Shown: positions 1-52,149 of the stretch, piece after piece
Numbering within the stretch: position 1 is the stretch's first letter
Layout of the letters: each line of letters starts with the position of its first letter
Origin: an uncultured Oscillospiraceae bacterium
Lineage (GTDB): Bacteria; Bacillota; Clostridia; Oscillospirales; Oscillospiraceae
Assembly: GCA_934591705.1 (NCBI GenBank)
Contig: CAKTPM010000005.1
Coordinates: 972 to 64,971, forward strand
DNA: 64,000 nucleotides
Direction: 5' to 3'
Notes under the pieces: model-generated
What the model saw: the letters and a program-made list of their open reading frames with translations, nothing else
Told to the model about the DNA's origin: nothing
Databases searched by the model: none
Translations under genes and position numbers: made by a program

Positions 1-3000
1 TGGCGTCGGTCATGCTGTCATAGCGCTTGCGGATATTTACAACGCTCTGCTCCTCCGCCAGCGTGATGGGGTCGGACAGGCCGTTGATCCAACCGATCAC
101 CACCTCGGCGGACTTCTTATCCTCCTTCAGCTGCTCCAGCGTCTTTTCGGCGGCCTCCAGTGTGGTGAGGGCACCGGCGTTTTTCACCAGGTTCTGCTGG
201 CGCAGCTCCAGAGCGTCATAGGCCTGGCGGGCCGCCTTGATGGCCGCCTCACTCTTCAGTGTCACCGTACCGATGGCGTTGATCTTTTCGATTACGGCGT
301 TGGCGGCAGCCTGATCGGCAGCGGCCTGCGCGGCCTTCAGCTGATTTAGCTTGGCGCGGGCATCCAGCAGCGTCTTGGCATTTGTTACCTTGGCCTTCTG
401 CGCAACGGTCAGCGGATTATAGAGCTTTTCAGCCGCTATGATCTTCACATCGCTGCTCAGGGTAACGGGCTGGGGAATGGCCTCAATGGCCTTGATAGCG
501 GCCTGTACGGCCTCCTCATCCGCGGCTAAGACCCGGCTCTTCCACTTCTTGAAAAGGGCGTCTTGCAGGGTGTCGCCTTCGGCGGCCCCCAGCAGCGTCA
601 GCATCTCGGCCTCGGTCTTTGCGGTGCCCTTGCCGTAATTTTTAACGGCAAGACAGGTGTTCAGGTAGTATACATCCTTGCCGTAGCAGCTGTCCTTGTT
701 GATACAGGCAGCGCCGCCAACGAAGGTTTTGCCAGCTACGATGCCGATGTTGTAGCAGTCGCTGAGCTTGGGACCGCCAAGCGGGCCCGCAGCGGCGCAG
801 GAAACGATGCCGCCCACACGCATTGCGGTGGCTTCTACCCGGCCGGCATTATAGCAGTTGCTTATGCTCTGGCTGTTATGGCCGCCGCCTGCAATACCGC
901 CGACATTTTGCTTGCCGGTGACCTTCACGGCACTGTAGCAGTTTTCAATCTTGCCGCTGTAGAGGTAGCCAACGATGCCGCCGGCAAATTTCCCGGTGGT
1001 GGTCACCGTACCGGTAACGCCCAGGTTCCGGATGGTGCCGCCGTCTTTGACGAAGCTGAACAGGCCCTGCTTATTGTCGGCGTTGTCGATGCTAAGGTTG
1101 CTGACCACATGGCCGGCGCCGTCGAATACGCCCTTATATGCAGCCTCGCCGGTGGTGCTTTCCACGGTGTTGTTGCCGATGGGCGTCCAGGGGTTATTCT
1201 CCAGGTCGATATCGGCAGTCAGAATAGCGTTCAGCGCATACTGGCCTTCGTTGACGGCCTTGGCAAACCAGGCCAGCTCCGCGGCGGTGCCGATGCGGTA
1301 AGCGCCGCTTTCATCCCTGGTGGGCTCGGTGGTGGTAACGCCGTTCCAGTCCTTCACGGAGCGCAGGACGGCCAGCATCTGATCCTTGAAGGGGTGCTCC
1401 TTGGCCTCGACCATCCTTCGCAGCTCGGAGGCGGGGGCGGCGGTGCCGCGTTTCACGGTCTCATCGGGGCAAGAGCCCTCCAAATAGTAGCTGTTGGTCA
1501 CCGTGCCAGTGCCGGAGACCAGTGCGCCTACAACTTTTTTAGATTGCGAAGTAACCGCTCCCACATTATAGCAGCTATCCAGCGTGGGGCAAATGCTCGT
1601 GGTTCCTCCGCAGGAGGTGATGCCGCCCGCATAGCCGGCTGAACCGGTGGCGGAGATTCGGCCTGCGTTGTAGCAATTCTTGAGGTTGGCCTTCAATGAT
1701 TGACCGCCGCCGGCAATACCGCCTGCCCATTTACCCGCGGTGACATTCACGGCACTATAGCAATTCTCTATGCTGCTGCCATTAAACATATACCCGGCAA
1801 TGCCGCCGGCGTAGTTACCAGCGATAGACACATTGCCGGTAACAGCGAGATTACGCACCACAGCCTTGGCGGCCAAATAACTAAAGAGTCCCTGGTAGGT
1901 TTCCTTACCGGTTTTGTTGATATAGAGATCGCTGATCACATGACCGGCGCCATCAAATATGCCGGCATATTTTTTGGAATTGCTGCCGATGGGTGTCCAG
2001 TCAAAGCCCGCCAGCTCAATGTCGGCGGTCAGGACGGCATTGATGGAGATGCTCCCGCCATTAACGGCTTGCGCAAACCAGGCCAGCTCTGCGGCGGTGC
2101 CGATGAGGTAGACGCCGCTTTCGTCCTTCTGGGGCTCGGTTTTGGCCTTGCCGTCCCAGGCGTTGGCGCCGGGCTTCTTCATGGCGGCGGAAACGGTCAG
2201 GATGCCGTTCTCCACCTTGGCGGCGTCGGCGCCGCCCAGGGTGAAGCTGCCCGCGGTGCGGACATAGCCGTCCTTCGTCAGCGTATAGCTGTAGGAGCCA
2301 TAGCCGAGAGTAAAGGTGCCGTCCCCGTTGGCGGCAACGGCCTTGCCGCTGCTGTCGGTGATGGTGACGCTCACATCCTCCACGGTGCTGCCGCTCTCAT
2401 CGGTGATGAGCAGCTTCACGGCGTAGGTGACCTTGCGGTGTACCGTGACCACCGCGTCAGCGTAGTGGTTCATGTAGTAGTCGATGTTGACGGCGTTGAA
2501 GTTGGTACCCACGCCGGTATCCGTCATGCCATACAGGAAGGCAAAGGGGTTGGCGGCAGAAAACATACTGCCGTAGGTGTAGCCGTTGGTGAATACGCAG
2601 GCCGCCGTGTCCGCACCGTCGGCAAAGGTCAGCTCCTCCGGAATGGTCACGGTGACGGAGGCGTTGTCCATCCGCTGGTACTGACCCAGCGTTCCATTAA
2701 ACTTGTTCTCGCCGTTTTGATAGGTGGGGTTGAAGATGGTGGGGTTGAAGATGCCGGAAACCTTGTTAACGGCGCGGTACATACCGCTGAATGTCAGCTT
2801 CACCTGATCGCCGGGCATAATGTCCTCACCCTTGTGGCTGGCGTTCTCCGCGGTGATGGTGACCTTGGCCACCCGCACCAGACGGTAGCTGACGCCGGTT
2901 TCATCGGTCATTTTAATGATGACGGTGCCGCCCTTGGTGTTGGCGGTATTGAAACCCTTGAGGGGCACGCTGTAGCGGCCGTCCGCACCGGCGGTGACGG

Positions 3001-5877
3001 CGGTAAAGCCAGAGAGAGTGCTCTCCATAGCGGCCGTGGTGGTGACAATGGCGTACTCCACGGTGGTGCTGCCGGTGGACTTGACCGCGAAGTCCAGGGT
3101 GGGGTTCTCCTCCTTGGCCTCGTAGAACCAGGTGTCGTAGTTATAGTCCCAGTCCATGGAGCGGGTGGTGGTGACGCCGGGGGCCATGTTGAAGTCCACA
3201 TCCGCGTCGGCGGTGCCGTGCTTTACTTCAGTGCCGCCCACCACGATGACGCCCACGCGCTGGGGCTGGGTGGCGGGGAACAGGCCGCCGTGGCTGCCCA
3301 CCTTCTGCGTGCCGTCTTTGGGGTCCGCCGTGGTGACATCCACGCTGTCATAGTAGACGGTGATGACGGAATCCTTCGTGCCGGGGGTCACATCCGCCCA
3401 GTTGGCGGTGGTATTGCCGCCGTTGACGGTCTGGAGCTTGGCATCGCCGTCTCCCATCACGCTCCAGTGGAAGTCCGGCTCCACCATGATGTTGCCGGCG
3501 TCGGAGTTGATGAGCTGCCAGTGGCGGTAGGCCCGGACACGGGTGGTTCCGTCAAGGGCCTTGTAGCCGCTGGGATCCAGATTCACCTGCAGATCGGCCT
3601 CGTCGCGGGTGGCGGTCTGCGTTCCCAGCTGGCTGAAGTCGTGGGACAGGCGATCCGTCGCGGCGCTGGCGGTAAGGCTCAGCTCCTGATCCGCGTTCAG
3701 ATCGCTGAGCCATCCGGCGCTGGTCACATGACCGGGCTGGCTGAGACGCCAGGTGTAGTTGCTGTTGTTCTTGGTGATGAAGTATTCGGCGGACTTGGTA
3801 TCGCCTTTGACCGTCCAGCCGTTGCCGTCCTCCGTCACGCCCAGGGGCTCCACCTCTGTGGTGTTGAAGTTGTTCCACTGGAAATACAGTCCGAAATCTG
3901 CCGTCTTCGGCACGGTGACGGTGAGCTTCACGCCGGGATTGATGGCCAGTCCCTTGGAACTGGCGTTGGAGCTGGGTTGGAAGGTCTGGTTGATGGTCTG
4001 CGTGAAGATGTAGCCTTCAATATCGGGATAGGCATAGGCATTGTACAGGCAGGCATTGCCGCCTGCATACAGCACCGTGGGATAGTAGTCATAATCTCCC
4101 TTGGTGTAGGGCGTACCCATGACGCAGGAGGTCTTCATGATGGGGCAGTCCACCCGCACATGGTACTCAGCCGCCTTAAAATAGGTGTTGTCCGTCTTGC
4201 GGCTGCTGGTATAGACGGAGTAGCACTGGAGGTAGATGTTGGTGCCGCCGCCGGCGCCGCCGTCCACATTGCTGTCGGTGGGCAGATCCAGTGTCATACC
4301 GCCCAGGGCCACATCGTAGGCGCCGGTCTCCGCGTTCTTGGCAAAGGCGCGGTAGGCATAGCGACCGGCGGTAAGGCTAGCGTAGAACATCTGGTAGTTG
4401 TCGACCAGCTTGCCGACGGCCACATCATAGGGCTCCTCGCCCTCGGCGGGCGCATTGGTGAAGCTGCTGTAGAGGAAGCAGTTCTGCAGCTCCTCCCCCA
4501 GCACCTCGCCGCCCTGGGCGTCCGTCTTCACGCTGTAGAGCTTGATGACGGGATAGCCGCCGGTGTAGTCCTTGCCCACATAGAAGGAGAAGTTCATGAG
4601 GGGTGCATCCTCCACCGTCAGGGTCAGCGTCCAGGCATCCTGGGAGAAGTGCTTCCCATCGTGGGAGGCGCAGAAGCGATAGGTGTAGGTACCGGCCTGC
4701 TTCTCGGTGAGCTGGATGGTGGTAGCGCCGAACAACGCCTTAGGGAAGCCCTGCATGCCGCCCCATGTCTGACCGCCGTCGGTGGAGCGCTGGTAGTAGT
4801 AATTCTCATAGCTCAGCGTCTGGCCGTCCACGGGCGCGAAGATCTTGCCTGCCTGCAAATCGCTGAGCAGATACGCCATACCGGTCTTGACCGCAGCGCT
4901 GCTCTCGGCGGGATACCCCGCCTTGCGGGTGGGAACGGGCACAGCCGGCTTCTCCGGCTCGGTGGTCTGCTCCTTGGCGAAGCGCACCGCCACATCGTCA
5001 TAGGCGAAGTAGGCGGGCTGGGAGAAGCCGTGGCCGTTGTCGCTGGAGCCGGTGATATTGAACTCCACCTTGGTAACGGCGCCCAGGCCGGAGAGGTCGA
5101 ACTTCGTCCAATCCATGACGATGTTCTTGGGGCCGTTGCACAGGTAAATGGAGGCATCAGCGGTCTTTTTCTCGCCGTTATAGCCGGTGGCCGTCAGCTT
5201 GACCCAGTCGTCATCGCCGATCTTGGCGGTCAGGCCGTTGCCGTTGAGATAGCAATTCAGCGCATAGCAGATGTTGTTGACATACATGTGGTCGATCACG
5301 CGGGCGACCTCATCGCCAAAGGACAAGGACGGCAGGATCTGAGAATCCGTGTAGCCGGAGTTATCCTTGTAACCGTAGTGTACGGCAAAGTTGTTGGAGC
5401 CGTTGTGGCCGCCGCCGGTGCGGACATCGCCCTCGGCACCCACTTTATACACGGTCAGCTGTTTGTCGTAGCCGCCATTTTTAACAAAATCGCCGGAGGC
5501 ATAGTTGGACACGGCATGGCCGCCGCCCATATAGCAATACTGGTTCCAGCTCTTGGGCAGCGTATGCTTCAGCTCGGTGTTCCCGGCATCGTACCAGGTA
5601 TACGCCTTGCTATCGTCCGTGGTGCCGCTGCCGTTGGGGTACAGCAGGCTGCCGCCGTACTGAGGATCGTCGATCAGGCTCGACCAGTTGCTTCCGCCGG
5701 CAAAATTGGTGCCGCCCTTATAGTCGGTATCCTCAAATGTCAGCGTCCTGAGCTCATAGCTCTCAGAGGCGGATGGTTCTCCCTCCGCTGCGAAGGCGGT
5801 GAGCATGGTGGCATTGAACAGAGAAAGCACCATGACCAGCGCCATCAGGGCGGAGGCAAGTCGTTTTGTGATCTTCA
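1..5877 (-). CDS. Giant secreted surface protein with GLUG-motif repeats. Partial: the 3' end lies beyond the window start. The signal-peptide exon (5877..5740) is in a different frame from the body (open from 5761 downward).
   Basis: Manual reverse-complement translation: TTG start at 5877 after RBS AAAGGAG gives LKITKRLASALMALVMVLSLFNATMLTAFAAEGEPSASE (signal peptide). From 5761 a protein-like frame follows (GYELRTLTFEDTDYKGGTNFAGGSNWSSLIDDPQYGGSLLYPNGSGTTDDSKAYTWYDAGNTELKHTLPKSWNQYCYMAAGHAVSNYASGDF...). Near 1740-1800 the same frame reads IAGYMFNGSSIENCYSAVNV (GLUG-like), and near 1080-1140 AYKGVFDGAGHVVSNLSIDN. The + ORFs 563..1642 and 1700..5902 share codon boundaries with this frame and are typical GC3-driven antisense shadows. 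No minus ORF was listed because no stop occurs in-window. Confidence 0.6.
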
Positions 5878-5924
5878 ACTTTCTAACATCTCCTTTTTGT
5901 AATTTGCTTTACTCTCCCGTATAG

Positions 5925-5976
5925 AAAAAGGCCTTTCGGCAAAAAGCACTGCTCTGTGCTCCTGCCGAAAGGCCTG
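5925..5976 (-). terminator. Intrinsic terminator: 13-bp inverted repeat AGGCCTTTCGGCA..TGCCGAAAGGCCT followed by a U-run on the minus strand. Terminates the upstream operon and/or serves as the expression platform of the preceding riboswitch-like element.
   Basis: Perfect 13-nt arms with TTTTTCTAT downstream on the minus strand. Sits between the aptamer-like region and the RBS of the GLUG gene. Confidence 0.55.
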
Positions 5977-5979
5977 CAA

Positions 5980-6150
5980 TCTTCCTATTCTCCGCCATAA
6001 AGATGGCGGTTTACGGTTTCAGCGTCCCGGTACAGGCAGGAGCTGCAGCATATCCTTGGCGTATCTGACTTATCCGCTGCCCCAAGGGCGCGGCTTCACA
6101 GTGACCGACTCGCGGGGAATTTCACCCCATTCCGCTTCCGGCAGGCAAGC
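5980..6150 (-). ncRNA. Candidate cobalamin (B12) riboswitch aptamer.
   Basis: Minus-strand sequence GGAAGCGGAAUGGGGUGAAAUUCCCCGCGAGUCGGUCACUGUGAAGCC matches the cobalamin riboswitch core (GGGAA..GGUGAAAAUCC..GCGGUCCCGCCACUGU.A). A downstream CUCCUGCC resembles the ACCUGCC of the B12 box. It is followed by the terminator hairpin and then the RBS/start of the giant gene. Confidence 0.5.
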
Positions 6151-6174
6151 TGCCGGGCAGGATATCTGCTGTAT

Positions 6175-7662
6175 TTACTTGTTCTGCATCCGGACGATGG
6201 ATTGGTAGAGGGCCTGGTAGTCCAGGATGTCCACCCGGCCGTCGCCGTTGATGTCCGCGGCCCTGCGCTGCTCTTCAGGCAGGGGGCTCCGGCCGCAAAG
6301 GTGGCCGTAGAGCGCCTGGAGGTCGCCTACATCCACCGCTCCGTTCCCGTTGAGATCCAAAGGATCAGCCGCGACCCTTACGCAGGCCACCGCCGGGGCA
6401 TAGCACGCCTGGCTGGCGCCATCGTCCATTTTACCGGCGTTTTCATCCGCCGCCAGCAGGTAGTAGGTGCCCGGCTTCGTAAAGGTGAGCGTATAGCTCC
6501 CCTGGCCGTCATCCTCCATGGCGCAGGCATCCTCCGCCGGCGCCATCTCCTGCACCGATTTAGTATAAACGGACAGGGCCAAATTGTCAATAGGTTCAAA
6601 GCGCTCTGTGCCCCCGTCCGCCACGGATTGTGTGCCGTACTTCAGGGTCCTTACGGAAAGGGGTACGCCGGCCTTCGCGGCATAGCTGTCCCGGTCGAAG
6701 CAGCAAAAGGCACCCCGGGTATAGAACTGCCAGTCGGTAAACATAGCCAGGTCGATGGCGTCCCCCTCGGACAGGAGGATATAGTCCGCGGTGGAGCCCC
6801 AGCCGGGGCTTTGCAGCGGGAACATATGGTTGCGGTAGTACATGAGGTTTTCATCGTGGCCCCAGAAGTTTTTCATGTAGACACTGCAGCTGCCGCCGAT
6901 GAGCGACAGGGCGAAGGTGGTGCTGCTGTAGGCCGTGGTGCCCCACACGGTCCGCACCTCCACCGGCTCCTGATAGTCGAACAGGCCGCTCTCACCCGTG
7001 CAGCATTCCTCCTCCGGCAGGCCCATGTAGTAGCGCTCCAGCAGGTAGATGTACAGGTGCAGCAGCGTGGGGCGCTCGATGACCGTGCTGCCGGTGTAGG
7101 CGCCGCTGCCGTTTTCCGTTGCGTAGCGATAGAAATCCTTCAGGTCATAGAGCTCCAGGTCGAAGTATCGGAGGGTCACCGGCAGGCGCATAAGAGGCGT
7201 TTCTTCTTCGTCATTGCCCAGCAGGGGGATCCCGTCGCTGGAGAGGGTCACATATATGCTGACGCTCTGGGCCGGCGTCTCCTCATAGCTGTACTGCCTG
7301 GGGTCTCCCGGCGCCGCCGCCTCCACCGTGATGGGCAGGGTGAAGGTCACGCTGTCCTCCCCACAGGAGGCGGTGATCCGCGGGGCGTACTCCCCCGGTG
7401 TCCTGGAGGTAAAATAGTAGATGCCGTCCTGCAGAGGGGTGGTGGCTCCGTTGCCGGTGTTGTCCGCCACCGTGTAGTGCAGCCTGTGGCCGCTGCCATC
7501 CCGGCACACCTCCCCCAGGTCGATCTTCAGCATCCCGCCCTGCCTGACCTGGTAGGACTTCTCCGCGGCGGTGATATGACCCGCCGCGAAAACTGTCTGC
7601 GGCAGGAGCATCAGCAGGACCGTGATGAGACAGAGCACTCTTTTTTTTGCGGTTCTTTTCAT
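6175..7662 (-). CDS. Secreted protein with a C-terminal type-I dockerin and a DUF4430-like segment.
   Basis: Signal peptide MKRTAKKRVLCLITVLLMLLPQTVFAAG. C-terminus DLNGNGAVDVGDLQALYGHL...DINGDGRVDILDYQALYQSI is a duplicated Ca-binding dockerin repeat. An internal GWGSTADYILLSEGDAIDLAMFTDW stretch resembles the DUF4430 C-terminal motif. RBS GGGAGGATAAAAG precedes the ATG. Confidence 0.75.
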   Translation of the reverse strand: MKRTAKKRVLCLITVLLMLLPQTVFAAGHITAAEKSYQVRQGGMLKIDLGEVCRDGSGHRLHYTVADNTGNGATTPLQDGIYYFTSRTPGEYAPRITASCGEDSVTFTLPITVEAAAPGDPRQYSYEETPAQSVSIYVTLSSDGIPLLGNDEEETPLMRLPVTLRYFDLELYDLKDFYRYATENGSGAYTGSTVIERPTLLHLYIYLLERYYMGLPEEECCTGESGLFDYQEPVEVRTVWGTTAYSSTTFALSLIGGSCSVYMKNFWGHDENLMYYRNHMFPLQSPGWGSTADYILLSEGDAIDLAMFTDWQFYTRGAFCCFDRDSYAAKAGVPLSVRTLKYGTQSVADGGTERFEPIDNLALSVYTKSVQEMAPAEDACAMEDDGQGSYTLTFTKPGTYYLLAADENAGKMDDGASQACYAPAVACVRVAADPLDLNGNGAVDVGDLQALYGHLCGRSPLPEEQRRAADINGDGRVDILDYQALYQSIVRMQNK

Positions 7663-7665
7663 CTT

Positions 7666-8160
7666 TTATCCTCCCACTGTGTCGCCGGCATTCACATCCT
7701 TGCCCAGATCACAGGTATAGACCCACCGGACGGCATCGCCCTCCTCCAAGATATACTGCGAGCAGCCGTAGTTGGGAAATTCCCCGTTGACGCTGTACAT
7801 CCAGCCGGAGTCCTTGCCGCCGTCAAATTCATAGAGGTTGCCGATGCCCTTGACATAGGCACTTTTGTATAGGGCTGTCCAGGCAGCGTCCAGGGGGATG
7901 CCCGCCTCCCGGCAGGCTCTCTGCAGGGCGTCATAGACGCTGGTCCCCCGGGGGACCTCCAGCTCTGTCTCCGGCAGGAGCATACCGCTCTGCGGCAGAT
8001 AGGCACGCTTTTCCTCCCGGCATTGCTCCGGATTTTGGGACAGGGTCTCGCAGGAAATAGACAGCGTATAGTGTAAAGTTATTTCACTTGTCTGTTCCTC
8101 TCCGCAGGCGGTAAGCAGGAGCAGCAGAGCGGCGGCCAGCGCCAGTGCCAGCTTTCTCAT
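7666..8160 (-). CDS. DUF4430 (transcobalamin beta-domain-like) lipoprotein.
   Basis: Lipobox LLLLLTAC-GEE. SVYDALQRACREAGIPLDAAW..GNLYEFDGGKDSGWMYSVNGEFPNYGCSQYILEEGDAVRWVYT fits the DUF4430 signature. Its ATG overlaps the upstream stop (ATGA). Confidence 0.75.
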   Translation of the reverse strand: MRKLALALAAALLLLLTACGEEQTSEITLHYTLSISCETLSQNPEQCREEKRAYLPQSGMLLPETELEVPRGTSVYDALQRACREAGIPLDAAWTALYKSAYVKGIGNLYEFDGGKDSGWMYSVNGEFPNYGCSQYILEEGDAVRWVYTCDLGKDVNAGDTVGG

Positions 8161-11100
8161 TGACTGCGCCCCCCTCCTGCCCTTTTGACGGCCTCATAGA
8201 GCGCCTGGTAGTCCAGAATATCCACTTGGCCGTCCCGGTTATAGTCCGCCGCCTCCCGGTAGGCCGTCTCCCGGCCGCTGTAGTCCCCCTCAATGGCGCC
8301 GGTGGACAGATAGGTATAGAGGCATTGCAGGTCAAAGATATCCACCGCGCCGTCGCCGTTCAGGTCCCCCAGGCCGGCGGGCTCTACCCGGATGCTCAGC
8401 AGCGCGGGAACGGAGGTCACCTGGGTGCCGACGCCGTCCTCTCCGTCCTGATAGAGGGAGTAGGCGAAGTGGAGGAGAAGCTCCCCCTCGTCTTCCCGGC
8501 GCAGGGGCTCCCGGGGCCAGGTAAAGTATGCTATCTTTTTTCCGTTTACTGTCCGCTCCGCCGGCAGTGTGCGGGAAAGACCGTTTTCATAGGTGAGGGT
8601 GATCTCCATGCCGGTGGGGTCGAAGTATTCCCCGGCCACATAGGCGGTCTTGTCCGGCTGCCGGGTCACCTCCATGCTTACGATGCTGCTGGCCAGGGCC
8701 ATCAGATGGGCGGAGTCGTTTTTGAAGTAGATGGTGCCGAAGCTGTCGGCAATGGGCGAACAGATGGCATACTGCGCCTGGGCGTCCGCCGGGGTAAAGA
8801 GCACATAGGGCGTTTGATAGACCGTGGTCTTGTCCTTGTCGATAAAGCTCTCCTGAGTGGTCAGCACCGGCTTGGTCTGGCCGGGCGTGTCCTTGAGGAC
8901 CCGCAGCTTTCCGGGGGTGAAGTTGTCAAAGAAGTAGACATACACCGCGCCGTCTCCCTCGCTGTAGGCCGTGGTCAGCAGGCCGGAGGTCTGGGGATAC
9001 CCCTGGGTGGGCACGCTGTAGGCGATCTGCCAGGTCTTGAGGTCGATGACGGTGATGCTGTGGCCGGAATACTGGGTGAACTGCCCCGTGCCGGATACGC
9101 CGATATAGGCGCGGTCCTTGTAAACAACGGGGGTGCAGGTGCTCATGGCGGGCTGGGACGGCGTGCCGCCGTTTTCCAGGGCCACGGCCCGGAGGGAGTC
9201 CTTATCCAGGCGCCATATATCCCCTTGCTTTTGGGGCGCCGCCACGGAGTAGAAGTACCCGCCCTTGGAGGTAAAATAGAACCTCCCATCGGCGTAGGAG
9301 ATGTTGGAGCGGATGTCGCCCCTGAGGTTTTTGATGGAGTCCATCAGCTTTCCGGTGGCCGGGTCGATGCACAGGAGCGCGGCGGTCTCGCTGGTGCAGC
9401 CGCCGGTGCCGTCATCGGTGCCGATCAGCAGATAATCCTCGCACACATAGGCCCCTGCCCAGTAGAAGCCCCCCGGGGAGGTATAGGTCCAGCGGGGCAG
9501 CTTGCTCTCCTTTTCGGAGGCGGGATCCTCGTCCGTGATGCTCAGGCACACCAGGTTTGCCTCCCGGTCCTCCTTATTCCAGAAGCCGGTATAAATGCAG
9601 CCGTCCCAGTAGGTGATGGGACAGTTGGGCTGACCGCCCAGGGCGTCCTGGTAGAGCCAGAGGGACTTGAGGGTGGCGGCGTCAAAGGCCTGGACGCCGC
9701 CGTCGGCAAGGCCGACAAAGAGCATCCCCTGCGCAAAGGTAGCGGAGTTGATGGCAAAGCTGGAGTTGTGGTCCATCTCCCCCTCCGCCACGGTGACGCC
9801 GGAAACGGCATCCAACTTGAAGAGCTTTTTGCCGGAGTAGACGATGAGGTAGTCATAGCCGTCCTCGGTGATCAGGATCGGGCAGCCCACGGCGGCGGTG
9901 TCAAAGCCCTTGCCCAGCTTCGATGCCCAGCTCAGATAGGCGCTCTGTGCGGTAATGGGGGTCTTGTGCTCGATGACGCCGTTGGCCGCATTGTTCCCCC
10001 GGAAGGAGTCCCAGGAGGAGGTGATACCCTCCCCGCAGCGGCTCTCCGGCGCCGCCGTCATGGTGAGCCTCAGGGCGCTGGCGGCCTTCCCGGCGGTAAA
10101 GACCCGGCTCTGTCCCACATAGCCGGGGCAGGTGACCACATAGGTGTAGAGCAGCGTATCCACCAGCAGGTAGCGGCCATCCTCCCGGGGCCACACCCGC
10201 TTGCCGGTGCGGTTATCATATACGCACACCAGCGCATCCGCCAGCGGCTGCCCCGATGGATCCCGCACGGTGAAAAGGGTCTCCACAGCCGCCTTCTTAT
10301 GGAGGGTCAGCGTGTAGGTGCGGCGCTGGGCACCGGCAGGCACGCGCTCACTGCCGGGGGTGATGGAGATGACCTCTTGGTCCTTCTCCGTATCCAACGG
10401 CACGCGTACGGTGAAGCTGCCGGCGGTACCCTGCTCATCGGCCGGCGGCGCATAGCGGCGGCCGTTTACATAGACATAGTAGTTTTCTCCGTAGGGCTCC
10501 AGCGTCAGCACCGCCTCCTCCGTGCTGCGGGGCAGCGTGGCCCGGTAATCGGTGATGTCCCGGTCAAAGCCCGTGACCTCCTCTCCTGCGGTGTTTTTGT
10601 AGGAGAGGGGGGTATCTATACCCTCCGCCGTCAGGCGCAGGCCGTTGGTGTCCTTCAGGGTCAGTGTCTTGTGGAGCGTGAGGATGTAGTCCTGATACTG
10701 CTCCACCTCGCCGCCGCCGTTTTTTGTGGCCCGAAGGGTCAGCGTCTGGGTCTCATCGCCGGTGCGAAGGAAGCTCCGCAGGAATTGGCCGGTGCTCCCC
10801 GTTTCCTTTTGGTTCACGGTGTAGCCGGTCTCCAGGGCGGTGAAGGTGCAGCCAGCGTTTTGCACCCAAATATAGAGGGAGCTGCTTGCATCCGTCACGG
10901 AGACCGTATGGCTGTGGGCCGGGGCCTTGGGCACCTGTAAAAGAACGCTTTTGTTCTTTGCAACGGGCATGGAGCTGGCGGCAAGCCAAAGGCCGTCCAG
11001 TGCATCCTCCGTTTGCGGCGCGGCGGCGGCGAGGGTGAGCCCCGCCTCGGCGGTGAAGGAGCCCTTGGCGTGGTAATAGATCTCCCTATCGGTGACATAG

Positions 11101-12686
11101 GTATAGCCCTCGCCGGGAACCAGCAGGAAGACATCCTGGGTCCCGCCGGCAGAGGCGGGGCCGATCTCGGCCCCGGCGCTGTTGAAGACATGCACCTTGA
11201 CATCCGCAGCATGCTGCACGGTGACGGAGACAGCCGCCGTCTTTTCCACCGTCAGCGTATAGCGCCTGCTCTGCCCGGCATGAGCCACCTGCACCTCAAG
11301 AGCCGTCTCCGGCTCCGTAAGGGCGACGGTCATCCCCTCGCCGCTCCGGAGCGGCTCGCCGTTGACGGAAACGGCATATGCCTCATCAAAGGCAGTGGGC
11401 GTAAGGGTGATTTCATCTGCTGTCACCCGGCAGGTATAGTGCTCCCCCTCCGGCGTAAAGCCGAAATTCTGGGGGATCCCTTGGACGCTGAGCGCCAGGG
11501 CGCTGAGGGTGGGGACCCGCAGGATCTCCATGCGGTACTGCTGATAGGCCGTGTAGCCCTCCTTGGCGTACCGCGCCTCGATCACGGCGGTGCCGCCCCG
11601 GGAGGAGGCATCTAAAAAGTCCTTCAGAACGGCGTTGATGCTTGCCCAGGGGGCTCCGACCTTTTCGATCTCCGCCCCCGCCGTGTTCCGATAGAGCCCC
11701 GCCCAAGACACGGAGTCTGTGTTATAGCTGCCGCCGGTCTTAGGCAGATCTCTGCCGGCAGGGCAATAGATGTAGGCGCTTTTCACCGCGTCCGGCACAT
11801 AGTAGATGCTGCTGTTGTCCGTCCCCTCCGCAGAGGGATAGGCGTCCCCCTCCAGCTTGCCGGAGGTGCGGTGGAGAATGGGCGCTGCCAGCCATTGGGC
11901 GTCCGCCGGGAGCTTCACGGCGGATACCGTCTTGCCCTCCATTTGGACAGCCCCATCGGCCAGCACGGTCATGGTACCCCGGGCGCCGTTGAAGCCGGCG
12001 GTCACCTGAAAATCATAGCGGCCCTCCGCCAATTGGAGCTTCTCTCCGGCGGCGAAGGTAAAACCGGTGCCGTAGGCATTTTTCGCCGCAAAGGCATAGT
12101 CCGTCAGGGGACTGCCGCTCAGGTCGGTGACCGTAAGGCGCAGCGTCTTTTTCTCCGCGTCCAGAACGGCCTGATAGGCCTCCATTTTCTCCTTCAGAGC
12201 CGTGGCCGCGGCATCGTGGGCCTCCGCCGTCAGCAGCGCCGCCTCCGCGGCGGCATACTCCCCGGCGGCGTAGTTTCTCACCGGCTCCTGGGCCTCGGCA
12301 TAGTCCGCCATGGCGCACACCAGCCGGCAGTAGGCCCCGGGATCCTCGGCAGAGAGCTCGGTGAATACGAAGCAGGCGGTGTCAGCGGCGGGAGCGTTCA
12401 GATCGTAGCCGCCCCGGTCGTCAAAGCGGTTATAGTTCCCAGAAACGCCGTCGATCTCGGTGATAAAGCCGTCAACGGCCCCTGTAAAGGTATGTCCCTG
12501 CATCCCGCTGAGGACCTGCCAGACGGTTTCACCGGCGGCAGCGTTCACATACTGCGGGGCGATGACCACCCTTTCACCTGTGACGGCGGCCACCGCCAGG
12601 CGGCTCTCCTCCTCCGCCAGGGCGGCGGGAATGCCCTCCAGGAGCATGAACAGCGCCAGCAGAAGGGCGGTGATCCTCTTTTTCAT
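8157..12686 (-). CDS. Giant (~1510 aa) secreted multidomain protein: N-terminal DUF4430-like module, cadherin-like beta-sandwich repeats, PQQ-type beta-propeller, C-terminal type-I dockerin.
   Basis: Start MKKRITALLLALFMLLEGIPAALA after RBS GAAGGGAGGAAG. N-terminus VWQVLSGMQGHTFTGAVDGFITEIDGVSGNYNRF. Repeated RRYTLTVEK / QDYILTLHK / RTYTLTLHKK motifs. Propeller-type repeats (YFTSKGGYFYSV, WTYTSPGGFYWAGAYV, IGTDDGTGG). Dockerin DLNGDGAVDIFDLQCLYTYL...DYNRDGQVDILDYQALYEAV. Confidence 0.75.
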   Translation of the reverse strand: MKKRITALLLALFMLLEGIPAALAEEESRLAVAAVTGERVVIAPQYVNAAAGETVWQVLSGMQGHTFTGAVDGFITEIDGVSGNYNRFDDRGGYDLNAPAADTACFVFTELSAEDPGAYCRLVCAMADYAEAQEPVRNYAAGEYAAAEAALLTAEAHDAAATALKEKMEAYQAVLDAEKKTLRLTVTDLSGSPLTDYAFAAKNAYGTGFTFAAGEKLQLAEGRYDFQVTAGFNGARGTMTVLADGAVQMEGKTVSAVKLPADAQWLAAPILHRTSGKLEGDAYPSAEGTDNSSIYYVPDAVKSAYIYCPAGRDLPKTGGSYNTDSVSWAGLYRNTAGAEIEKVGAPWASINAVLKDFLDASSRGGTAVIEARYAKEGYTAYQQYRMEILRVPTLSALALSVQGIPQNFGFTPEGEHYTCRVTADEITLTPTAFDEAYAVSVNGEPLRSGEGMTVALTEPETALEVQVAHAGQSRRYTLTVEKTAAVSVTVQHAADVKVHVFNSAGAEIGPASAGGTQDVFLLVPGEGYTYVTDREIYYHAKGSFTAEAGLTLAAAAPQTEDALDGLWLAASSMPVAKNKSVLLQVPKAPAHSHTVSVTDASSSLYIWVQNAGCTFTALETGYTVNQKETGSTGQFLRSFLRTGDETQTLTLRATKNGGGEVEQYQDYILTLHKTLTLKDTNGLRLTAEGIDTPLSYKNTAGEEVTGFDRDITDYRATLPRSTEEAVLTLEPYGENYYVYVNGRRYAPPADEQGTAGSFTVRVPLDTEKDQEVISITPGSERVPAGAQRRTYTLTLHKKAAVETLFTVRDPSGQPLADALVCVYDNRTGKRVWPREDGRYLLVDTLLYTYVVTCPGYVGQSRVFTAGKAASALRLTMTAAPESRCGEGITSSWDSFRGNNAANGVIEHKTPITAQSAYLSWASKLGKGFDTAAVGCPILITEDGYDYLIVYSGKKLFKLDAVSGVTVAEGEMDHNSSFAINSATFAQGMLFVGLADGGVQAFDAATLKSLWLYQDALGGQPNCPITYWDGCIYTGFWNKEDREANLVCLSITDEDPASEKESKLPRWTYTSPGGFYWAGAYVCEDYLLIGTDDGTGGCTSETAALLCIDPATGKLMDSIKNLRGDIRSNISYADGRFYFTSKGGYFYSVAAPQKQGDIWRLDKDSLRAVALENGGTPSQPAMSTCTPVVYKDRAYIGVSGTGQFTQYSGHSITVIDLKTWQIAYSVPTQGYPQTSGLLTTAYSEGDGAVYVYFFDNFTPGKLRVLKDTPGQTKPVLTTQESFIDKDKTTVYQTPYVLFTPADAQAQYAICSPIADSFGTIYFKNDSAHLMALASSIVSMEVTRQPDKTAYVAGEYFDPTGMEITLTYENGLSRTLPAERTVNGKKIAYFTWPREPLRREDEGELLLHFAYSLYQDGEDGVGTQVTSVPALLSIRVEPAGLGDLNGDGAVDIFDLQCLYTYLSTGAIEGDYSGRETAYREAADYNRDGQVDILDYQALYEAVKRAGGGRSQ

Positions 12687-12702
12687 GCTTCTTCCTCCCT
12701 TC

Positions 12703-15036
12703 TCAGTACAGGCAGCAGATCCAGCGCCGATAAAACCGCTGCCAGGGGCTCCACCGGCTCTTACACACCGCAAGAGCCGTCTCGGTCTGCTCTCTCATGC
12801 GTTGGCGCTCTGCCGGGGACACATCCTCATTGCTGTAAAGTGCTTTTGCATTACAGGTAATGATATCTCTTATATTCATCGTTTCCCCTGCCCAGTCCTG
12901 CAGGGCATTCTCCAGCTGGGTAAGGGGCACATTTCGCCAGGGAACGCCGCAAAGGCGGGCCAGGCAGACCACATAGGCGCACATGGCCGCCGCCGCGGCA
13001 TTGGCATCCGGCTGGGTAAAGCGCCTGCTCCTCCTGCGGCAGATGACGCCGCGGCGTATGCAAAGGGCTCCTACGGCACCGGCCAGAAGGATGAGCAGCA
13101 CATAGAGCCAGTCCCTGGGACCCAAATGCAGACGGCTGAAGTAGTCATAGAGGCCCTCCACGAGCTCCTGGAGGTGTACTCCCGACTCCGGGGTCTCCTC
13201 CTCTACCTCATTCTGCCGCTGGGTCTGGGAGAGGGTGCCCTGGCCGTTCTCGGCGGCCGAGCCGCTCAAGAGGGCGTTTTCATCCTCCTCGAACCACAGC
13301 CACTGGGGCTGGGGCATCACATCATAATAGGCGGGCGCGGCCTCGAAGGGCACCCAGCCCACACCGTCCTCATAGTATTCCGCCCAGGCATGGGCATCCT
13401 GCCCGGTAAGGGTCAGGGTGGTCTCCCCGGTGCTGCCCGCTATGGCGGCGGGGGTGACGAGATAGCCCTCCACATAGCGGGCGGGGATGCCGAAATACCG
13501 CAGCATCACCGCCGCCGCGGTGGCGTAGTGGACATCGCAGCCCTGGGCCCCCTCCTGCAAAAGCGCCAGGACGGGGTCCTCCCCCCCGGAGAGGGCCGCG
13601 GGGGTGTCGCTATATTCCACGGCGGTCTCTAAAAACGCCGTGATGCGCCGCTTGGCCTCATAGGAGGTGATGGTCTGGGGGGCCTCCCCCAGCGCCTCCG
13701 AAAGAGCCGTTTGTATCCGGGTGGGAATGGCCAGATAGTTCTCATAGACAAACGCCCGGTAGGTATCCTCAAAGCTCAGATAGTCCTCCAGCCCCTCCTC
13801 CTGCCAGCGCTCATTGAGTCCGGCCAGCAGGGCGTAGGCCTCGGCGGTGAGGTTTTCCGACACGGTATAGGAGCAGTGCTTTTCCCCGAAAAGCCCCCGG
13901 GCAGCGGGCAGGGTATCCCGCAGCTGCGCCGGATCCGCCGCCGGGCTCTCCGGCGTCAGCTCATAGGGGGTGATGCGTCCGGCGCGGCAGGCACCCAGCA
14001 GGCGTACATCCACTGTAAGGGTGTCCTTTCCCTGCCCCAGCAGCTCGGAGAGAGCCGCCAGCTGAGAGAAGCCGTTATATCCCCGCAGGTGCCAGGCATA
14101 GAGGGACGCATGGTCCGCCGTCATGTCCCGGGCCTCGGCATCGGCCCACCCGGCGGAGGTGTAGCGCTGCCCCACAAAGCTGCGGAGATAGAGCGGCGTC
14201 GGCTCCGAGAGGGTCACCTCCAGCATGGGGGTCTCAGCATCTCTCTCCGGCAGACGGGTCAGGTCTCCCTCCGGCAGCGCCTGCCGGGCGGGCTCGTAGC
14301 GCAGGGCGTGCACCGCCCGGTGCAGGGCGTTGGCCGCTCTCTGCGTGTCCACGCTCACCCTTTGGGAAAGGGTCAGGCCCACCGCCGTGATAAGCGCCGC
14401 CAGGACGATCAGCAGTGCCAGGGCCGCGGGCTGTGCAGGCACCGGTCCCTCCTGGGCGCGCTCCTCTGTGAAGAGCAGCACGCTGCAGCCCAAAAGCAGC
14501 AGGATCAGCCAGCCGCTTCCGACGCTCCAGCGGAGGGAAAAGATGACCGCCGCCGCAAAAACTGCCCAGCTCGCCCGGGGCCGCAGCGCCGCTAAGGCGC
14601 CGAGGCAAAGCCCCAAGACCCCGCAGGCCGGCAGCTGTGCCCACAGCAGGGACACTGCCTCGCAGGCGTAAGGGGAATAGTCCAGGGCGTCGATATCCCG
14701 CCGCCAGGCGCAGAATTGATTGGCCAGCTGCAAAAAGCCGTTTGCCGCCCCATGGGAGAAAATCCCGCAGAAGCAGATGACCGCCAGGAGAAGTCCCATC
14801 GGCAGCCAGAGCAGCCGGTCCCGCCGGGCGGAAAAGAGCGCCGCTGCCGCCGCGGCCAGGGCCCCGACGCAGAGGGACGCGGGGCTTCCCAGTGGAAAGC
14901 CATCGGCCAGCAGGCCCACGGTGCCGCCGAAAAGCAGCAGTGCGCCCAGCACCCGCAGAAGGGCGCCGGGAGACAGCACGCTGCGCGCTATTGGTTTTTC
15001 CGGGGCTGCTGTGAACCCTCCGGCGGTTTTTTTCAT
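12703..15036 (-). CDS. Transglutaminase-like domain membrane protein (TgpA-like partner of DUF58/MoxR).
   Basis: Multiple N-terminal TM segments. Transglutaminase core GQCDVHYATAAAVMLRYFGIPARYVEGY. RBS GGAGTAAGAGGA before the ATG. Confidence 0.8.
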   Translation of the reverse strand: MKKTAGGFTAAPEKPIARSVLSPGALLRVLGALLLFGGTVGLLADGFPLGSPASLCVGALAAAAAALFSARRDRLLWLPMGLLLAVICFCGIFSHGAANGFLQLANQFCAWRRDIDALDYSPYACEAVSLLWAQLPACGVLGLCLGALAALRPRASWAVFAAAVIFSLRWSVGSGWLILLLLGCSVLLFTEERAQEGPVPAQPAALALLIVLAALITAVGLTLSQRVSVDTQRAANALHRAVHALRYEPARQALPEGDLTRLPERDAETPMLEVTLSEPTPLYLRSFVGQRYTSAGWADAEARDMTADHASLYAWHLRGYNGFSQLAALSELLGQGKDTLTVDVRLLGACRAGRITPYELTPESPAADPAQLRDTLPAARGLFGEKHCSYTVSENLTAEAYALLAGLNERWQEEGLEDYLSFEDTYRAFVYENYLAIPTRIQTALSEALGEAPQTITSYEAKRRITAFLETAVEYSDTPAALSGGEDPVLALLQEGAQGCDVHYATAAAVMLRYFGIPARYVEGYLVTPAAIAGSTGETTLTLTGQDAHAWAEYYEDGVGWVPFEAAPAYYDVMPQPQWLWFEEDENALLSGSAAENGQGTLSQTQRQNEVEEETPESGVHLQELVEGLYDYFSRLHLGPRDWLYVLLILLAGAVGALCIRRGVICRRRSRRFTQPDANAAAAAMCAYVVCLARLCGVPWRNVPLTQLENALQDWAGETMNIRDIITCNAKALYSNEDVSPAERQRMREQTETALAVCKSRWSPWQRFYRRWICCLY

Positions 15037-15054
15037 TCCTCTTACTCCTGCCTG

Positions 15055-16197
15055 TCAGCAAAGATCGATTTCCGCCAGCATCCCGGCGTAATGGGTCTCA
15101 TCAAAGCTGTATACGCGGCCCGCTCCGCTCTCCCCGCCGCCGCACAATAGGGACACTAAGTTCTCCTCCGGGCACAGCGCCGCCGGGGGCGGCGCCTCGG
15201 CCAGGCCCACAAAGATGACCTTGGTGTTGTTTTCCAGCCCATAGAGCCGGCGGTACATTTCCGCTGCCGTTTCCCCGCCGCAGGACGGCGAGGCGCTCAG
15301 AAGCTGCGGCAGCAGCTCATAGAATTCTTCCTTTTCCCGGGCCTCGAAGGTCACGAGCTCCCCTGCCCCGCGATCCCAGGCGGCACGGCAGCTGACCCCC
15401 TGCTCCAAAAGCTCCCGGCACAGGGTGGCCATCACCTCGGCCATGGCATCGCTCTGCCGGGGCGTGGGGCTGCCGCCCCGCTCCCAGAGGATCAGCACCG
15501 CCTGCTCCAGAGGCAGAGCCGGGTCGCGGACAATGAGCTTGTCCATTTTGGAGGACAGCTTCCAGTGGATCTGCCGGAGCCCGTCGCCCGGGACATATTC
15601 CCGGATCTGATAGGGCTCGGAGTAGTCATAGCCGGGCCGATCCGGGGCATAGCGGTCGCTTTCCCGGGAAATACCGCTGCGCTGGGGCAGCAGCAGCTCC
15701 ATGGGAAAAAGCGCCGGCTGCACGGCCAGCTGCAGACTGCAGGCCGCCTTTACCGGAAGGCGGCAGATGCCTAAGGGGTCGCAGACCTCCAGGCGCAGCA
15801 GCTGGATCGTGAATAGGCCGCACTGGGCGCTCTCCAGCGCCAGCACCGCCTCTCCCCGGCCCCTGGGCGGGAGGGAGAGAACAGCGGTGCAGTCCGCCGT
15901 CTCGCCGGTAAGCCCGTTCTCCAGCCGGCAGCAGCAGCGCACCCGGGGCAGCGGCAGGAGGGATGTATTTTCCCCCCGGAGCAGGATGACCGCCTTTTTC
16001 CCCTTCTCCGCCGCCCGGGGCAGCCGGATGTCCAGCTCCACCGCTCTGCGGGCCGGCAGGGTCAGCAGGATGCCCAGAAGCGGCACCAGCACCGTAAGGA
16101 GCGCCAGCGCCAGCGTCCATCCTCCGGGGGCGGTGACCCACAGGGCCGCTGCTGATAGGATGGTCAATAGCCAGCCGGCGGCTGCAGGGACGCTCAC
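15055..16197 (-). CDS. DUF58 family protein (von Willebrand-type partner of MoxR). GTG start overlapping the MoxR stop (GTGA).
   Basis: DUF58 motif YQIREYVPGDGLRQIHWKLSSKMDKLIVRDP. No in-frame ATG for about 200 codons after the MoxR stop; the GTG sits immediately at the stop. Confidence 0.75.
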   Translation of the reverse strand: MSVPAAAGWLLTILSAAALWVTAPGGWTLALALLTVLVPLLGILLTLPARRAVELDIRLPRAAEKGKKAVILLRGENTSLLPLPRVRCCCRLENGLTGETADCTAVLSLPPRGRGEAVLALESAQCGLFTIQLLRLEVCDPLGICRLPVKAACSLQLAVQPALFPMELLLPQRSGISRESDRYAPDRPGYDYSEPYQIREYVPGDGLRQIHWKLSSKMDKLIVRDPALPLEQAVLILWERGGSPTPRQSDAMAEVMATLCRELLEQGVSCRAAWDRGAGELVTFEAREKEEFYELLPQLLSASPSCGGETAAEMYRRLYGLENNTKVIFVGLAEAPPPAALCPEENLVSLLCGGGESGAGRVYSFDETHYAGMLAEIDLC

Positions 16198-21841: not shown

Positions 21842-22567
21842 TCACCTCACACATACCGCCACTAACGCCCCGGCCAGCTCTCCCAGGGTCAGGGCAAAGC
21901 CGGAGACATCACCGGACATTCCCCCCAGCTGGCGGCCGGCCCACAGAACACAAAGCCAATATACCGCTGCCGCCGCGAGGGCCGCGAAGCTGTGCCACAG
22001 AAAAAGCGGCAGCACAGCGGCCAGCGCCAGCAGCAGGGCGCTCCACACCACCGGCGCCGGCTTATGGGCCAGGGCCGCATACTGGCTGGTGCCCATAGGC
22101 CGCAGGGTCTGCACCGCCAGGGCTGCCGCCCCACGGCTGGCCACCGGGATAAAAAGCAGGGCCCCCCAGGGTACCCAGGCGCCCAGGAAGGCGCTCCATT
22201 GGCACAGGGCCAGCAGCACCATGCCGATGACGGCGAAGGCCCCGCAGCGGGAGTCCTTCAGGATGCGCTGGCGGGTCTCCAGATCCCGGCGGGAGAGCAC
22301 CGCGTCGCACACATCCATGTAGCCGTCCAGGTGGAAAAAGCCCGTGACCAGCCAGGGGGCGGCGGCGCAGAGCACAGCCCCCAGAGCTGCCGGCAGAAAG
22401 CCGCTCAGCCAGGCGCACAGCACCCAGAAGCCCCCCACGACGGCCCCGATAAAGGGCAGGGCGCAGAGCATCTGCCCCCGGGCCGCCTCATCCCAACGCT
22501 TATAGGGACAGGGCACCGCCAGAAACATGCCCCAGGCCATGAAAAAGCCCGTTATGCATTTTTTCAC
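21842..22567 (-). CDS. cobS: Adenosylcobinamide-GDP ribazoletransferase (cobalamin synthase).
   Basis: GFFHLDGYMDVCDAV matches the CobS HxDGxxDxxDA motif. Multi-TM. Probable GTG start overlapping the cobU stop (GTGA). Confidence 0.85.
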   Translation of the reverse strand: MKKCITGFFMAWGMFLAVPCPYKRWDEAARGQMLCALPFIGAVVGGFWVLCAWLSGFLPAALGAVLCAAAPWLVTGFFHLDGYMDVCDAVLSRRDLETRQRILKDSRCGAFAVIGMVLLALCQWSAFLGAWVPWGALLFIPVASRGAAALAVQTLRPMGTSQYAALAHKPAPVVWSALLLALAAVLPLFLWHSFAALAAAAVYWLCVLWAGRQLGGMSGDVSGFALTLGELAGALVAVCVR

Positions 22568-52139: not shown

Positions 52140-52149
52140 ATCGTTTCTC

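Follow-up and report, generated by a model that had tools for sequence, protein, structure and literature searches.

Why should the gene for a giant surface protein in an uncultured Oscillospiraceae bacterium be preceded by an RNA that resembles a vitamin B12 riboswitch? The question is raised by a 64,000-nucleotide stretch of contig CAKTPM010000005.1 (assembly GCA_934591705.1, positions 972 to 64,971 of the forward strand; hereafter the window, numbered from its first letter), in which a sequence-only reading had noted a close likeness to the cobalamin-riboswitch core, on the minus strand, in front of a very long open reading frame (ORF). We consider it likely that the minus-strand RNA at 6169–5921 belongs to a divergent subclass of the riboswitches that sense corrinoids (the vitamin B12 family), and that it is coupled to a terminator and acts as an OFF switch on a giant surface B12 binder of the DUF4465 type; the host bacterium probably makes this B12-catching protein only when B12 is scarce. 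We regard the element as a variant of the known cobalamin riboswitch type and not as a new kind; the literature search was limited, and the subclass is perhaps described elsewhere.

Architecture of the spacer RNA

A 296-nt minus-strand spacer separates the TAA codon (6177–6175) of a gene for a 495-aa dockerin protein from the TTG start of the giant gene at 5878. The core-like RNA quoted in the sequence-only reading, GGAAUGGGGUGAAAUUCCCCGCGAGUCGGUCACUGUGAAGCC, is found at 6132–6091 on the minus strand, and a core pattern of 18 specified bases has a single match in the window (6098–6126, minus strand), where 0.02 are expected by chance. The fold of the spacer is more stable than that of shuffled sequences (z = −4.2). 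It consists of a multi-helix junction, which an 11-bp P1 closes, and of the terminator, which forms separately. Neither a second copy of the element nor a canonical cobalamin riboswitch was found elsewhere in the window.

The aptamer is larger than the 5980–6150 first proposed, as P1 starts at 6169 and a conserved hairpin of P13 type reaches as far as about 6020 (all parts described here lie on the minus strand). The 5′ strand of P1 (GCAGAUAUCCU, 6159–6169), which begins 5 nt past the upstream TAA, was placed by minimum-free-energy and constrained folds, and its 3′ strand (AGGAUAUGCUGC, 6045–6056) by folds and by the swapped-strand test described below; the 11-bp helix contains one bulge. Between P1 and P3 lies the P2 hairpin (CCGGCAG-CUUGC-CUGCCGG, 6138–6156), the sequence of which is hypervariable across copies of the element. 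The 5′ strand of P3 (GCG, 6135–6133), assigned by covariation, is followed by J3/4 (GAAU; together 6129–6135) and then by the P4 stem with loop L4 (GGGG-UGAAAUU-CCCC(G), 6113–6128), which fits the cobalamin pattern GGUGnnAnnCC and aligns with the Rfam model RF01482 from position 28. P5 (one G-C and one A-U pair) and its G-rich loop L5, GUCGG, occupy 6103–6111; the corresponding GCGAG-NN-GGUC block is the hallmark of the subclass. The base of P6 (A-CUG...CAG) and a short P6 hairpin of 23 nt (6094–6072) lie at 6065–6102, the large P6 extension (P7–P11) of the Cbl-I subclass being absent. J6/3, with the 'B12 box' remnant AAGUCAGAUA, and the 3′ strand of P3 (CGC, 6061–6059) occupy 6059–6071, as placed by the RF01482 alignment and by P3 covariation. 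The P3-P4-P5-P6 four-way junction is thus present with its conserved J3/4 (GGAA), L4 (GGUGnnAnnCC), CACUGU and AAGUCAG elements.

On the 3′ side of P1, the P13-like hairpin (6020–6043) carries the conserved loop UGCC-UGUA-CC(G) (6038–6028), the proposed kissing-loop partner of L5, and is followed by a hairpin predicted by folding (CCGCCAU-CUUU-AUGGCGG, 5992–6009). The strong 13-bp terminator hairpin of the sequence-only reading is borne out: the intrinsic terminator (5921–5975) pairs its 5′ arm AGGCCUUUCGGCA (5975–5963) with the 3′ arm UGCCGAAAGGCCU (5941–5929), contains an inner GCAC/GUGC sub-stem, has a hairpin energy of −32 kcal/mol and runs into UUUUUCU, within UUUUUCUAU. A simple terminator scan missed it because its loop exceeds 8 nt. 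A ribosome-binding site (AAGGAG, 5895–5890) and the TTG start codon (5878–5876) follow, again as first read; this TTG aligns with the ATG of orthologues in two related loci (L007 and L008).

Recurrence and covariation of the element

Relatives were chosen by protein, as 80 genomic loci encoding DUF4465-domain relatives, of which the nearest (67–84% identity) come from metagenome-assembled genomes of gut Oscillospiraceae/Clostridiales. The window's 31-nt core, with up to five substitutions allowed, stands upstream of a DUF4465 gene in 16 Oscillospiraceae/Clostridiales loci of the 80 fetched, and a metagenome scan with the core pattern gave at least 120 contigs, mostly from gut metagenomes; the metagenome-derived counts and family tests given below cover the copies among these listed matches. 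Altogether there are at least 141 copies, 126 of them unique, from gut Oscillospiraceae genomes and gut metagenomes. Their recurrent core reads GGUG..CC..GCGAG-NN-GGUCACUGUGA … AAGUCAGAUACG. The junctions ([G/A]CGGAAUGG, GGUGnnAnnCCCC, GCGAG-NN-GGUCACUGUGA and AAGUCAGAUACG) are nearly invariant across copies (see below for the part of this set by the search pattern), whilst the stems vary and yet still pair. Within the P5/L5 block GAG and GGUC are invariant and NN is variable; the GG was kept in all three copies found with those positions relaxed.

Covariation is observed in P1, P3, P4, P6 and the P13 stem. P3, formed by the triplet before GAA with the triplet after J6/3, covaries at all three of its pairs (GCG/CGC, ACG/CGU, GUG/CAC, AUG/CAU, GGG/CCC and ACA/UGU). 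Pairs were counted in an alignment, A3, of 59 copies of at most 88% identity, for P3, P4, P5, the P6 base, P6 and the P13 stem. The P3 counts were GC:37, AU:14, GU:6 and CG:38, UA:11, GC:8; P4 pair 12/27 was GC in 45 copies, AU in nine, CG in three and UA in one. The closing pair of P4 (A3 columns 11/28; window 6129/6113) is U·G in 49 copies, replaced by the isosteric wobble C·A in seven and by C-G in only two, and each of five P6 pairs shows double-sided changes. Paired cells make up 87.4% of the alignment as against 79.2 ± 0.5% in shuffles, double-sided changes number 152 as against 49 ± 6.5, and the covariation score is 0.318 as against 0.167; none of 500 shuffles reached any of these values, and every slid register scored lower. 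No variation occurs in P5 or in the CUG/CAG base of P6, so these are uninformative either way on pairing.

P1 and P2 were left out of the covariance model and of the pair-count alignment because they are hypervariable and MAFFT cannot align them. Hypervariable helices were tested without alignment, by comparing the duplex energies of cognate strands with those of strands swapped between copies. Cognate strands pair better in P1 (−19.1 versus −15.3 kcal/mol, p = 1.6e-17), in the P6 halves (−10.9 versus −5.4 kcal/mol, p = 1.5e-31) and in the P13 stem (−6.3 versus −4.6 kcal/mol, p = 2.3e-16). When P3 was enforced in folding, a P1 of at least 7 bp formed in 109 of 111 unique copies and the P2 hairpin in 110. 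With few exceptions the P13-like loop reads YGCC-N4-CCG. A covariance model built for the class (R1), the seed of which includes the window sequence, scores members at 89–101 bits and the window copy at 100.7 bits over 6019–6138, a match that takes in the P13-like hairpin.

Two candidate interactions were discarded. A pairing of the J3/4 CGG with the invariant tail CCG, given by RNAalifold on the first MAFFT alignment, was rejected because the tail CCG stays constant when the triplet turns to GUG, AUG or GGG; the 5′ triplet covaries with the post-J6/3 triplet instead. A correlation of the two variable L5 bases with the tail, seen in a set of 19 sequences, was gone in the larger set and was phylogenetic only.

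The DUF4465 domain of the giant protein

The regulated gene (1–5878, minus strand) encodes a giant protein with a signal peptide, a DUF4465 domain and weak CarboxypepD_reg and GLUG motifs. Its ORF, described by the sequence-only reading as longer than 1900 aa, runs for 1,959 codons to the start of the window and is still open there; on another contig (L201) it reaches at least 2,229 aa, again with no stop. Of the proposed secreted GLUG-motif protein, secretion gains support from a signal-peptide-like N-terminus, whilst the GLUG motif barely clears its cut-off (22.5 bits against 20.5). A Pfam search of the extended 2,229-aa protein gave no further domains, and an NCBIfam search of the giant, DUF4430 and dockerin proteins of the locus gave no matches.

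The DUF4465 domain (Pfam PF14717) covers aa 118–296 (nt 4991–5527) with 120.8 bits against a cut-off of 25 (E = 1e-34), and matches the PDB structures 9HMU, 9QPM, 9FCT and 9I2L. DUF4465 is the B12-binding β-jellyroll of BtuJ, for which B12 binding has been shown in eight divergent members, with the tyrosine of the HI-loop PAYF motif coordinating B12 (PMC13398666). The HI-loop motif, (G/N)TPAY(F), is kept in the giant protein as SQPAYF (aa 286–291; Y290) and aligns to PSYL of 9HMU. By sequence, then, the giant protein is probably a surface B12 binder, its predicted binding site lying in the N-terminal DUF4465/BtuJ-type domain, and the cobalamin-related role that the sequence-only reading had supposed for it is upheld. 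The same reading had called riboswitch control of such a protein unusual. It is not anomalous: the DUF4465/BtuJ domain makes B12 regulation expected, in parallel with the riboswitch-controlled surface B12 binders of Bacteroides, where the DUF4465 genes of Bacteroides thetaiotaomicron sit in riboswitch-regulated loci (PMC13398666).

The giant protein shares with BtuJ1 and BtuJ2 of B. thetaiotaomicron (PMC13398666; bioRxiv 10.1101/2025.07.01.662609) the DUF4465 β-jellyroll, the HI-loop PAYF tyrosine, an extracytoplasmic location and B12-riboswitch control; that B12 limitation induces expression is established in Bacteroides, and for the giant protein it is predicted. However, BtuJ1 and BtuJ2 are lipoproteins of about 250 aa, of the Gram-negative outer membrane or of vesicles, encoded beside BtuB, whereas here the DUF4465 domain stands at the head of a protein of 2,229 aa or more, encoded beside dockerin-bearing and DUF4430 proteins in an Oscillospiraceae genome of Gram-positive type. 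The DUF4465 domain is 60–67% identical between Oscillospiraceae and Prevotella/Bacteroidales proteins (L022–L064), which is unusually high across phyla and suggests, from these sequences, that gut bacteria have passed the B12-binding module to one another horizontally.

Genes downstream of the element

The first downstream ORF was surveyed with Pfam in 99 metagenome copies that had a callable ORF and had been selected by RNA only. DUF4430 leads with 14 copies, followed by Flg_new (8), GLUG (7), cadherin-like (7) and SLH (2) domains; CbiK (2), CbiM, a corrin methylase (TP_methylase), ribonucleotide reductase and DUF4465 also occur, as do aconitase (3), Fe-hydrogenase (2) and sigma-70 (2), which may be mis-called ORFs. 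With a local DUF4430 profile hidden Markov model applied to 122 copies, the domain was found on the same strand downstream in 36 and upstream in one. DUF4430 is the C-terminal domain of transcobalamin and intrinsic factor (PMC4350170). Most first ORFs (L081–L200) encode large proteins in which no B12 domain is recognised within the first 340 aa; these large surface proteins may hold unrecognised corrinoid-binding modules.

Canonical RF00174 elements occupy the same upstream slot of homologous DUF4465 genes in other Firmicutes (L012 and L065 with two each, and L013, L030, L034 and L066). Multiple elements also occur elsewhere. The two canonical copies of L012 and of L065 stand in tandem; L085 has a tandem of a variant copy (8641–8669, minus strand) and, after it, a canonical RF00174 copy (8273–8512, minus strand); L014 has two variant copies in series (1513–1636 and 2109–2231) before one DUF4465 gene; and in L023 two variant copies are divergently oriented (662–784, minus strand, and 1188–1310, plus strand).

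Terminator and proposed switching mechanism

A terminator-like hairpin with a U-run is present in 93 of 104 family copies, at a median of 25 nt after L13 of the P13-like hairpin, which points to control of transcription termination as the general output of the class. L5 has the form GNNGG; L13 contains the complementary CC/CCG, and the C-to-U changes in L13 still permit G·U pairs. To our knowledge a kissing loop is present in all known cobalamin riboswitches, and the P13-like hairpin probably docks on the G-rich L5 through a short one when ligand is bound, judging from the complementarity of the two loops.

In the window, GCUCCUGCC (6043–6035; the P13 5′ strand and the start of L13) can pair with GGCAGGAGC (5966–5958) in a 9-bp duplex of −20.9 kcal/mol, and GGAAG (5985–5981) with CUUUC (5971–5967), so that together the two pairings would occupy most of the terminator 5′ arm. 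The P2 3′ arm (CCUGCCGGAA) is an equally good competitor for the terminator 5′ arm (−19.9 kcal/mol). In the proposed ligand-free state, before the terminator 3′ arm has been made, the P13 5′ strand with L13 and the P2 3′ arm would sequester the terminator 5′ arm; binding of ligand would lock both P2 and P13 and free this arm, the 13-bp terminator would then form, and transcription would stop before the gene. When B12 is scarce, read-through would yield the giant secreted protein, which would capture B12 at the cell surface through its N-terminal DUF4465/BtuJ-type domain. The most likely mechanism is therefore modelled as a B12-dependent transcription-termination OFF switch, of which the ligand, the kissing loop, the antiterminator and the polarity are predicted features.

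A family-wide search for an antiterminator compared cognate with swapped segments for P1 5′, P2 5′, P2 3′, P4, P1 3′, P13 5′ and P13 3′; no candidate was convincing, the best being P2 3′ (p = 0.025).

Relation to recognised riboswitch families and alternative readings

Several results weigh against a corrinoid OFF switch at this locus, and they concern both the class assignment and the mechanism. At Rfam 15 gathering thresholds the window has no match to the cobalamin clan (CL00101: RF00174, RF01482 and RF01689). In a permissive search of 5850–6250 the best match was to the AdoCbl model RF01482, with 14.3 bits against a gathering score of 50 (E = 4.5), and RF00174 gave no match to the window copy at E ≤ 10. 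Only about 1/40 of the tested copies reach an Rfam gathering score and about 39/40 fail; none of the 16 copies at DUF4465 loci reaches it. The core near the binding pocket departs from the consensus, with GCGAG..GGUC in place of GCuGCCCCCGC and a J6/3 that is 1 nt shorter. The invariance of 18 core bases in the metagenome set is by construction, because the search pattern fixed them. A viral-contig scan with L5 relaxed yielded three copies, all with GG, and thus no kissing-loop covariation; none was observable in the main set because the search pattern fixed GG, so that the loop rests on conserved GG/CC. When the antiterminator state is enforced, it comes out about 20 kcal/mol above the terminated state in energy and could therefore act only kinetically, and across the family no upstream segment shows cognate-specific complementarity to the terminator 5′ arm. 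Finally, a promoter scan between the upstream stop codon and P1 found none, which bears on the origin of the transcript.

The partial RF01482 match spans model positions 28–95 of 149, which is the conserved core GGAA..GGUGAAAnUCC..CACUGUGA..AAGUCAG. Its E-value of 4.5 might be taken to speak for a chance resemblance without function; the comparative data have already refuted this reading, to which we give practically no credence, since only 0.02 core matches were expected in the window, the spacer fold stands at z = −4.2 and at least 141 copies with covarying helices exist elsewhere.

The sequence-only reading had named an Rfam covariance search among its checks and the lack of a hit above threshold as a refutation; formally this is what was found, as the window copy has no such match. 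We hold this criterion to be too strict, because only about 1/40 of the copies of the subclass reach any gathering score. A sibling copy (L121), with the identical GCGAG-UC-GGUCACUGUGA block and junctions closer to the canonical ones (GGGGAAUUG, AGUCAGGAUACC), passes the RF00174 threshold of 31.5 with 36.7 bits, in an alignment that runs end to end (model positions 1–189) with the P6 extension (61 model positions) deleted; copies with the J6/3 AAGUCAGGUCUUC reach 28.5 bits on RF01482. The class therefore grades into recognised family members. That the element is a cobalamin-type riboswitch, as first read, is accordingly favoured by a cobalamin core and junction layout whose stems covary, by the RF00174 match of L121, by canonical elements in the same position and by the directional link to B12 genes.

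The differences near the pocket raise the possibility of another corrinoid preference or another ligand. A riboswitch of cobalamin descent with changed specificity, for one corrinoid in particular (cobinamide, say, or a cobamide whose lower ligand is of one kind) or for a non-corrinoid ligand, seems to us improbable, though worth keeping in view. It would account for the systematic departure of the P5/L5 block and J6/3 from the RF00174 consensus, on which the Rfam models fail in about 39/40 copies, and for the tandem of variant and canonical copies in L085, which would be sensible if two riboswitches sensed different molecules. R1 likewise separates members (89–101 bits) from Rfam-confirmed canonical cobalamin riboswitches, which it scores weakly (15–22 bits), with no intermediates in 81 sources. 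However, the downstream genes are B12 binders or serve uptake or synthesis, as for ordinary B12 riboswitches, the element stands in for canonical RF00174 before homologous genes, and the ligand-proximal junction motifs are retained. Cobalamin riboswitches have also been reported to be broadly corrinoid-sensitive (PMC9600662), which we count against a changed specificity.

Very unlikely, in our estimation, is a structured leader that binds no small molecule. Such an element might bind a protein or mark a processing site, or be just where the upstream dockerin operon terminates, and its cobalamin likeness would be a relic. P1 begins 5 nt past the upstream stop codon, the spacer yielded no promoter, the terminator is thermodynamically dominant and no general antiterminator was found, all of which would suit such a leader. 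A relic, however, would not keep its junction nucleotides invariant while its stems covary in more than 100 distinct copies; most copies lie in ordinary 5′ leaders of B12-related genes, with a directionality of 36 to 1, and the order of aptamer, hairpin and terminator is the standard riboswitch layout. As to the transcript, the only sigma-70-like site (TTGACA-17-TATACT, 11/12 matches; 6590–6562, minus strand) lies within the upstream dockerin ORF, about 390 nt before P1; with this as the sole candidate, the corrinoid riboswitch that we favour may act on transcripts reading through from the upstream operon.

Comparison with known cobalamin riboswitches

Cbl-I riboswitches are defined by a large P6 extension (P7–P11), and Cbl-II riboswitches by the lack of both the P6 extension and the P2 module between P1 and P3 (PMC7367189). 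The window class agrees with the Cbl-II layout in the missing P6 extension only, as the P2 hairpin is present (110/111 copies); this gives a blended layout like that of yvrC of Bacillus subtilis. With RF00174 (Cbl-I type) the class shares P1-P2-P3 and the P3–P6 four-way junction, the J3/4 GGAA, the L4 GGUGnnAnnCC, CACUGU and the AAGUCAG B12-box core; a hairpin on the 3′ side of P1, a platform with a terminator and B12-related genes downstream are also common to both. The class differs in lacking the P7–P11 extension of P6, in P5/L5, where the G-rich loop of GCGAG-NN-GGUC replaces the C-rich loop of GCuGCCCCCGC, in J6/3, which reads AGUCAG-AUACG as against the one nt longer AGCCAGGAGACCu of RF00174, and in P3, which is mostly GCG/CGC in place of GGG/CCU.

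The atypical yvrC riboswitch blends Cbl-I and Cbl-II features and has an L5–L13 kissing loop of about 3 bp and a terminator (PMC7367189). Compared by description and not by sequence, yvrC and the window class share the P2 module, the lack of a long P6 extension and a P13 hairpin followed by an intrinsic terminator, and in both P2 is a candidate for an alternative ligand-free fold: it is proposed for this in yvrC, and its 3′ arm is the candidate in the window. In yvrC, L5 is CCG and L13 is GGC, whereas in the window class L5 has GG and the P13 loop CC/CCG, so that the polarity appears to be swapped; and yvrC regulates an ABC-type uptake operon, whereas the gene in the window encodes a giant surface protein. 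RF01482 (Cbl-IIb, eut-type) is the best Rfam model for the window copy, over core positions 28–95, and shares the short P6; however, the core alone aligns, the scores are well under 50, the window class has the P2 hairpin, and the genes serve B12 capture as against ethanolamine use.

Rfam models are the main basis on which B12 riboswitches and the genes under B12 control are counted in gut microbiomes. A widespread Oscillospiraceae subclass (at least 120 metagenome contigs) that is missed in about 39/40 copies implies that annotation falls short of the full B12 regulon in abundant gut Firmicutes, most of them uncultured. The genes under its control suggest that the surface B12-capture proteins of Bacteroides have a Gram-positive counterpart in giant secreted proteins with BtuJ-like or transcobalamin-like modules. 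The subclass is also a further natural case of the architecture with P2 and without the P6 extension, so far known from B. subtilis yvrC, which should make it useful for learning how corrinoid selectivity depends on the peripheral elements and the kissing loop. As a more speculative extension, which we hold to be possible though doubtful, the element would belong to a corrinoid-riboswitch subclass in its own right, which Rfam largely overlooks, with swapped L5–L13 polarity and possibly its own corrinoid selectivity, dedicated to an unrecognised Gram-positive surface corrinoid-capture apparatus in gut Oscillospiraceae. The components of such an apparatus would be giant proteins associated with the wall, each with a BtuJ-like (DUF4465) or transcobalamin-like (DUF4430) module at its head and some of them with dockerins, which would hint at a B12-scavenging complex assembled by cohesin and dockerin and analogous to the BtuG/H/J relay of Bacteroides.

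Genomic neighbourhood

The genes upstream of the switch bear out the dockerin genes named in the sequence-only reading, as dockerin domains were found. The 495-aa dockerin protein (6175–7662, minus strand) is preceded by a 164-aa DUF4430 (transcobalamin-like) protein (7666–8160, minus strand), for which a PDB sequence search gave no match. Within 6175–12773 (minus strand) this small DUF4430 gene lies between two dockerin-bearing genes, with overlapping stop and start codons at 8157–8160. Dockerins at a B12-associated locus hint at the cohesin-dockerin assembly of a corrinoid-binding surface complex. Directly upstream of a 1,538-aa cadherin-like/PQQ_2/dockerin protein lie genes for a MoxR-type AAA ATPase, a DUF58 protein and a transglutaminase-like protein (12703–17141, minus strand), a gene order that is repeated on contigs L201 and L202. 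A 660-aa ORF (18291–20273) has a weak DUF4430 match. Further upstream of the locus, on the same strand, CobS (cobalamin-5-phosphate synthase) and CobT (DMB phosphoribosyltransferase) are encoded at 21842–24239 (minus strand), and their presence near capture genes suggests a capacity for cobamide salvage or remodelling.

Other structured RNAs of the window are recognised by Rfam. A T-box leader (RF00230; 52200–52427, minus strand, 122.9 bits) abuts an 895-aa ORF (49506–52193, minus strand), presumably that of an aminoacyl-tRNA synthetase, and a tRNA gene (62884–62954, minus strand, 61.3 bits) and a TPP riboswitch (RF00059; 63685–63796, minus strand, 66.3 bits) lie near the end of the window.

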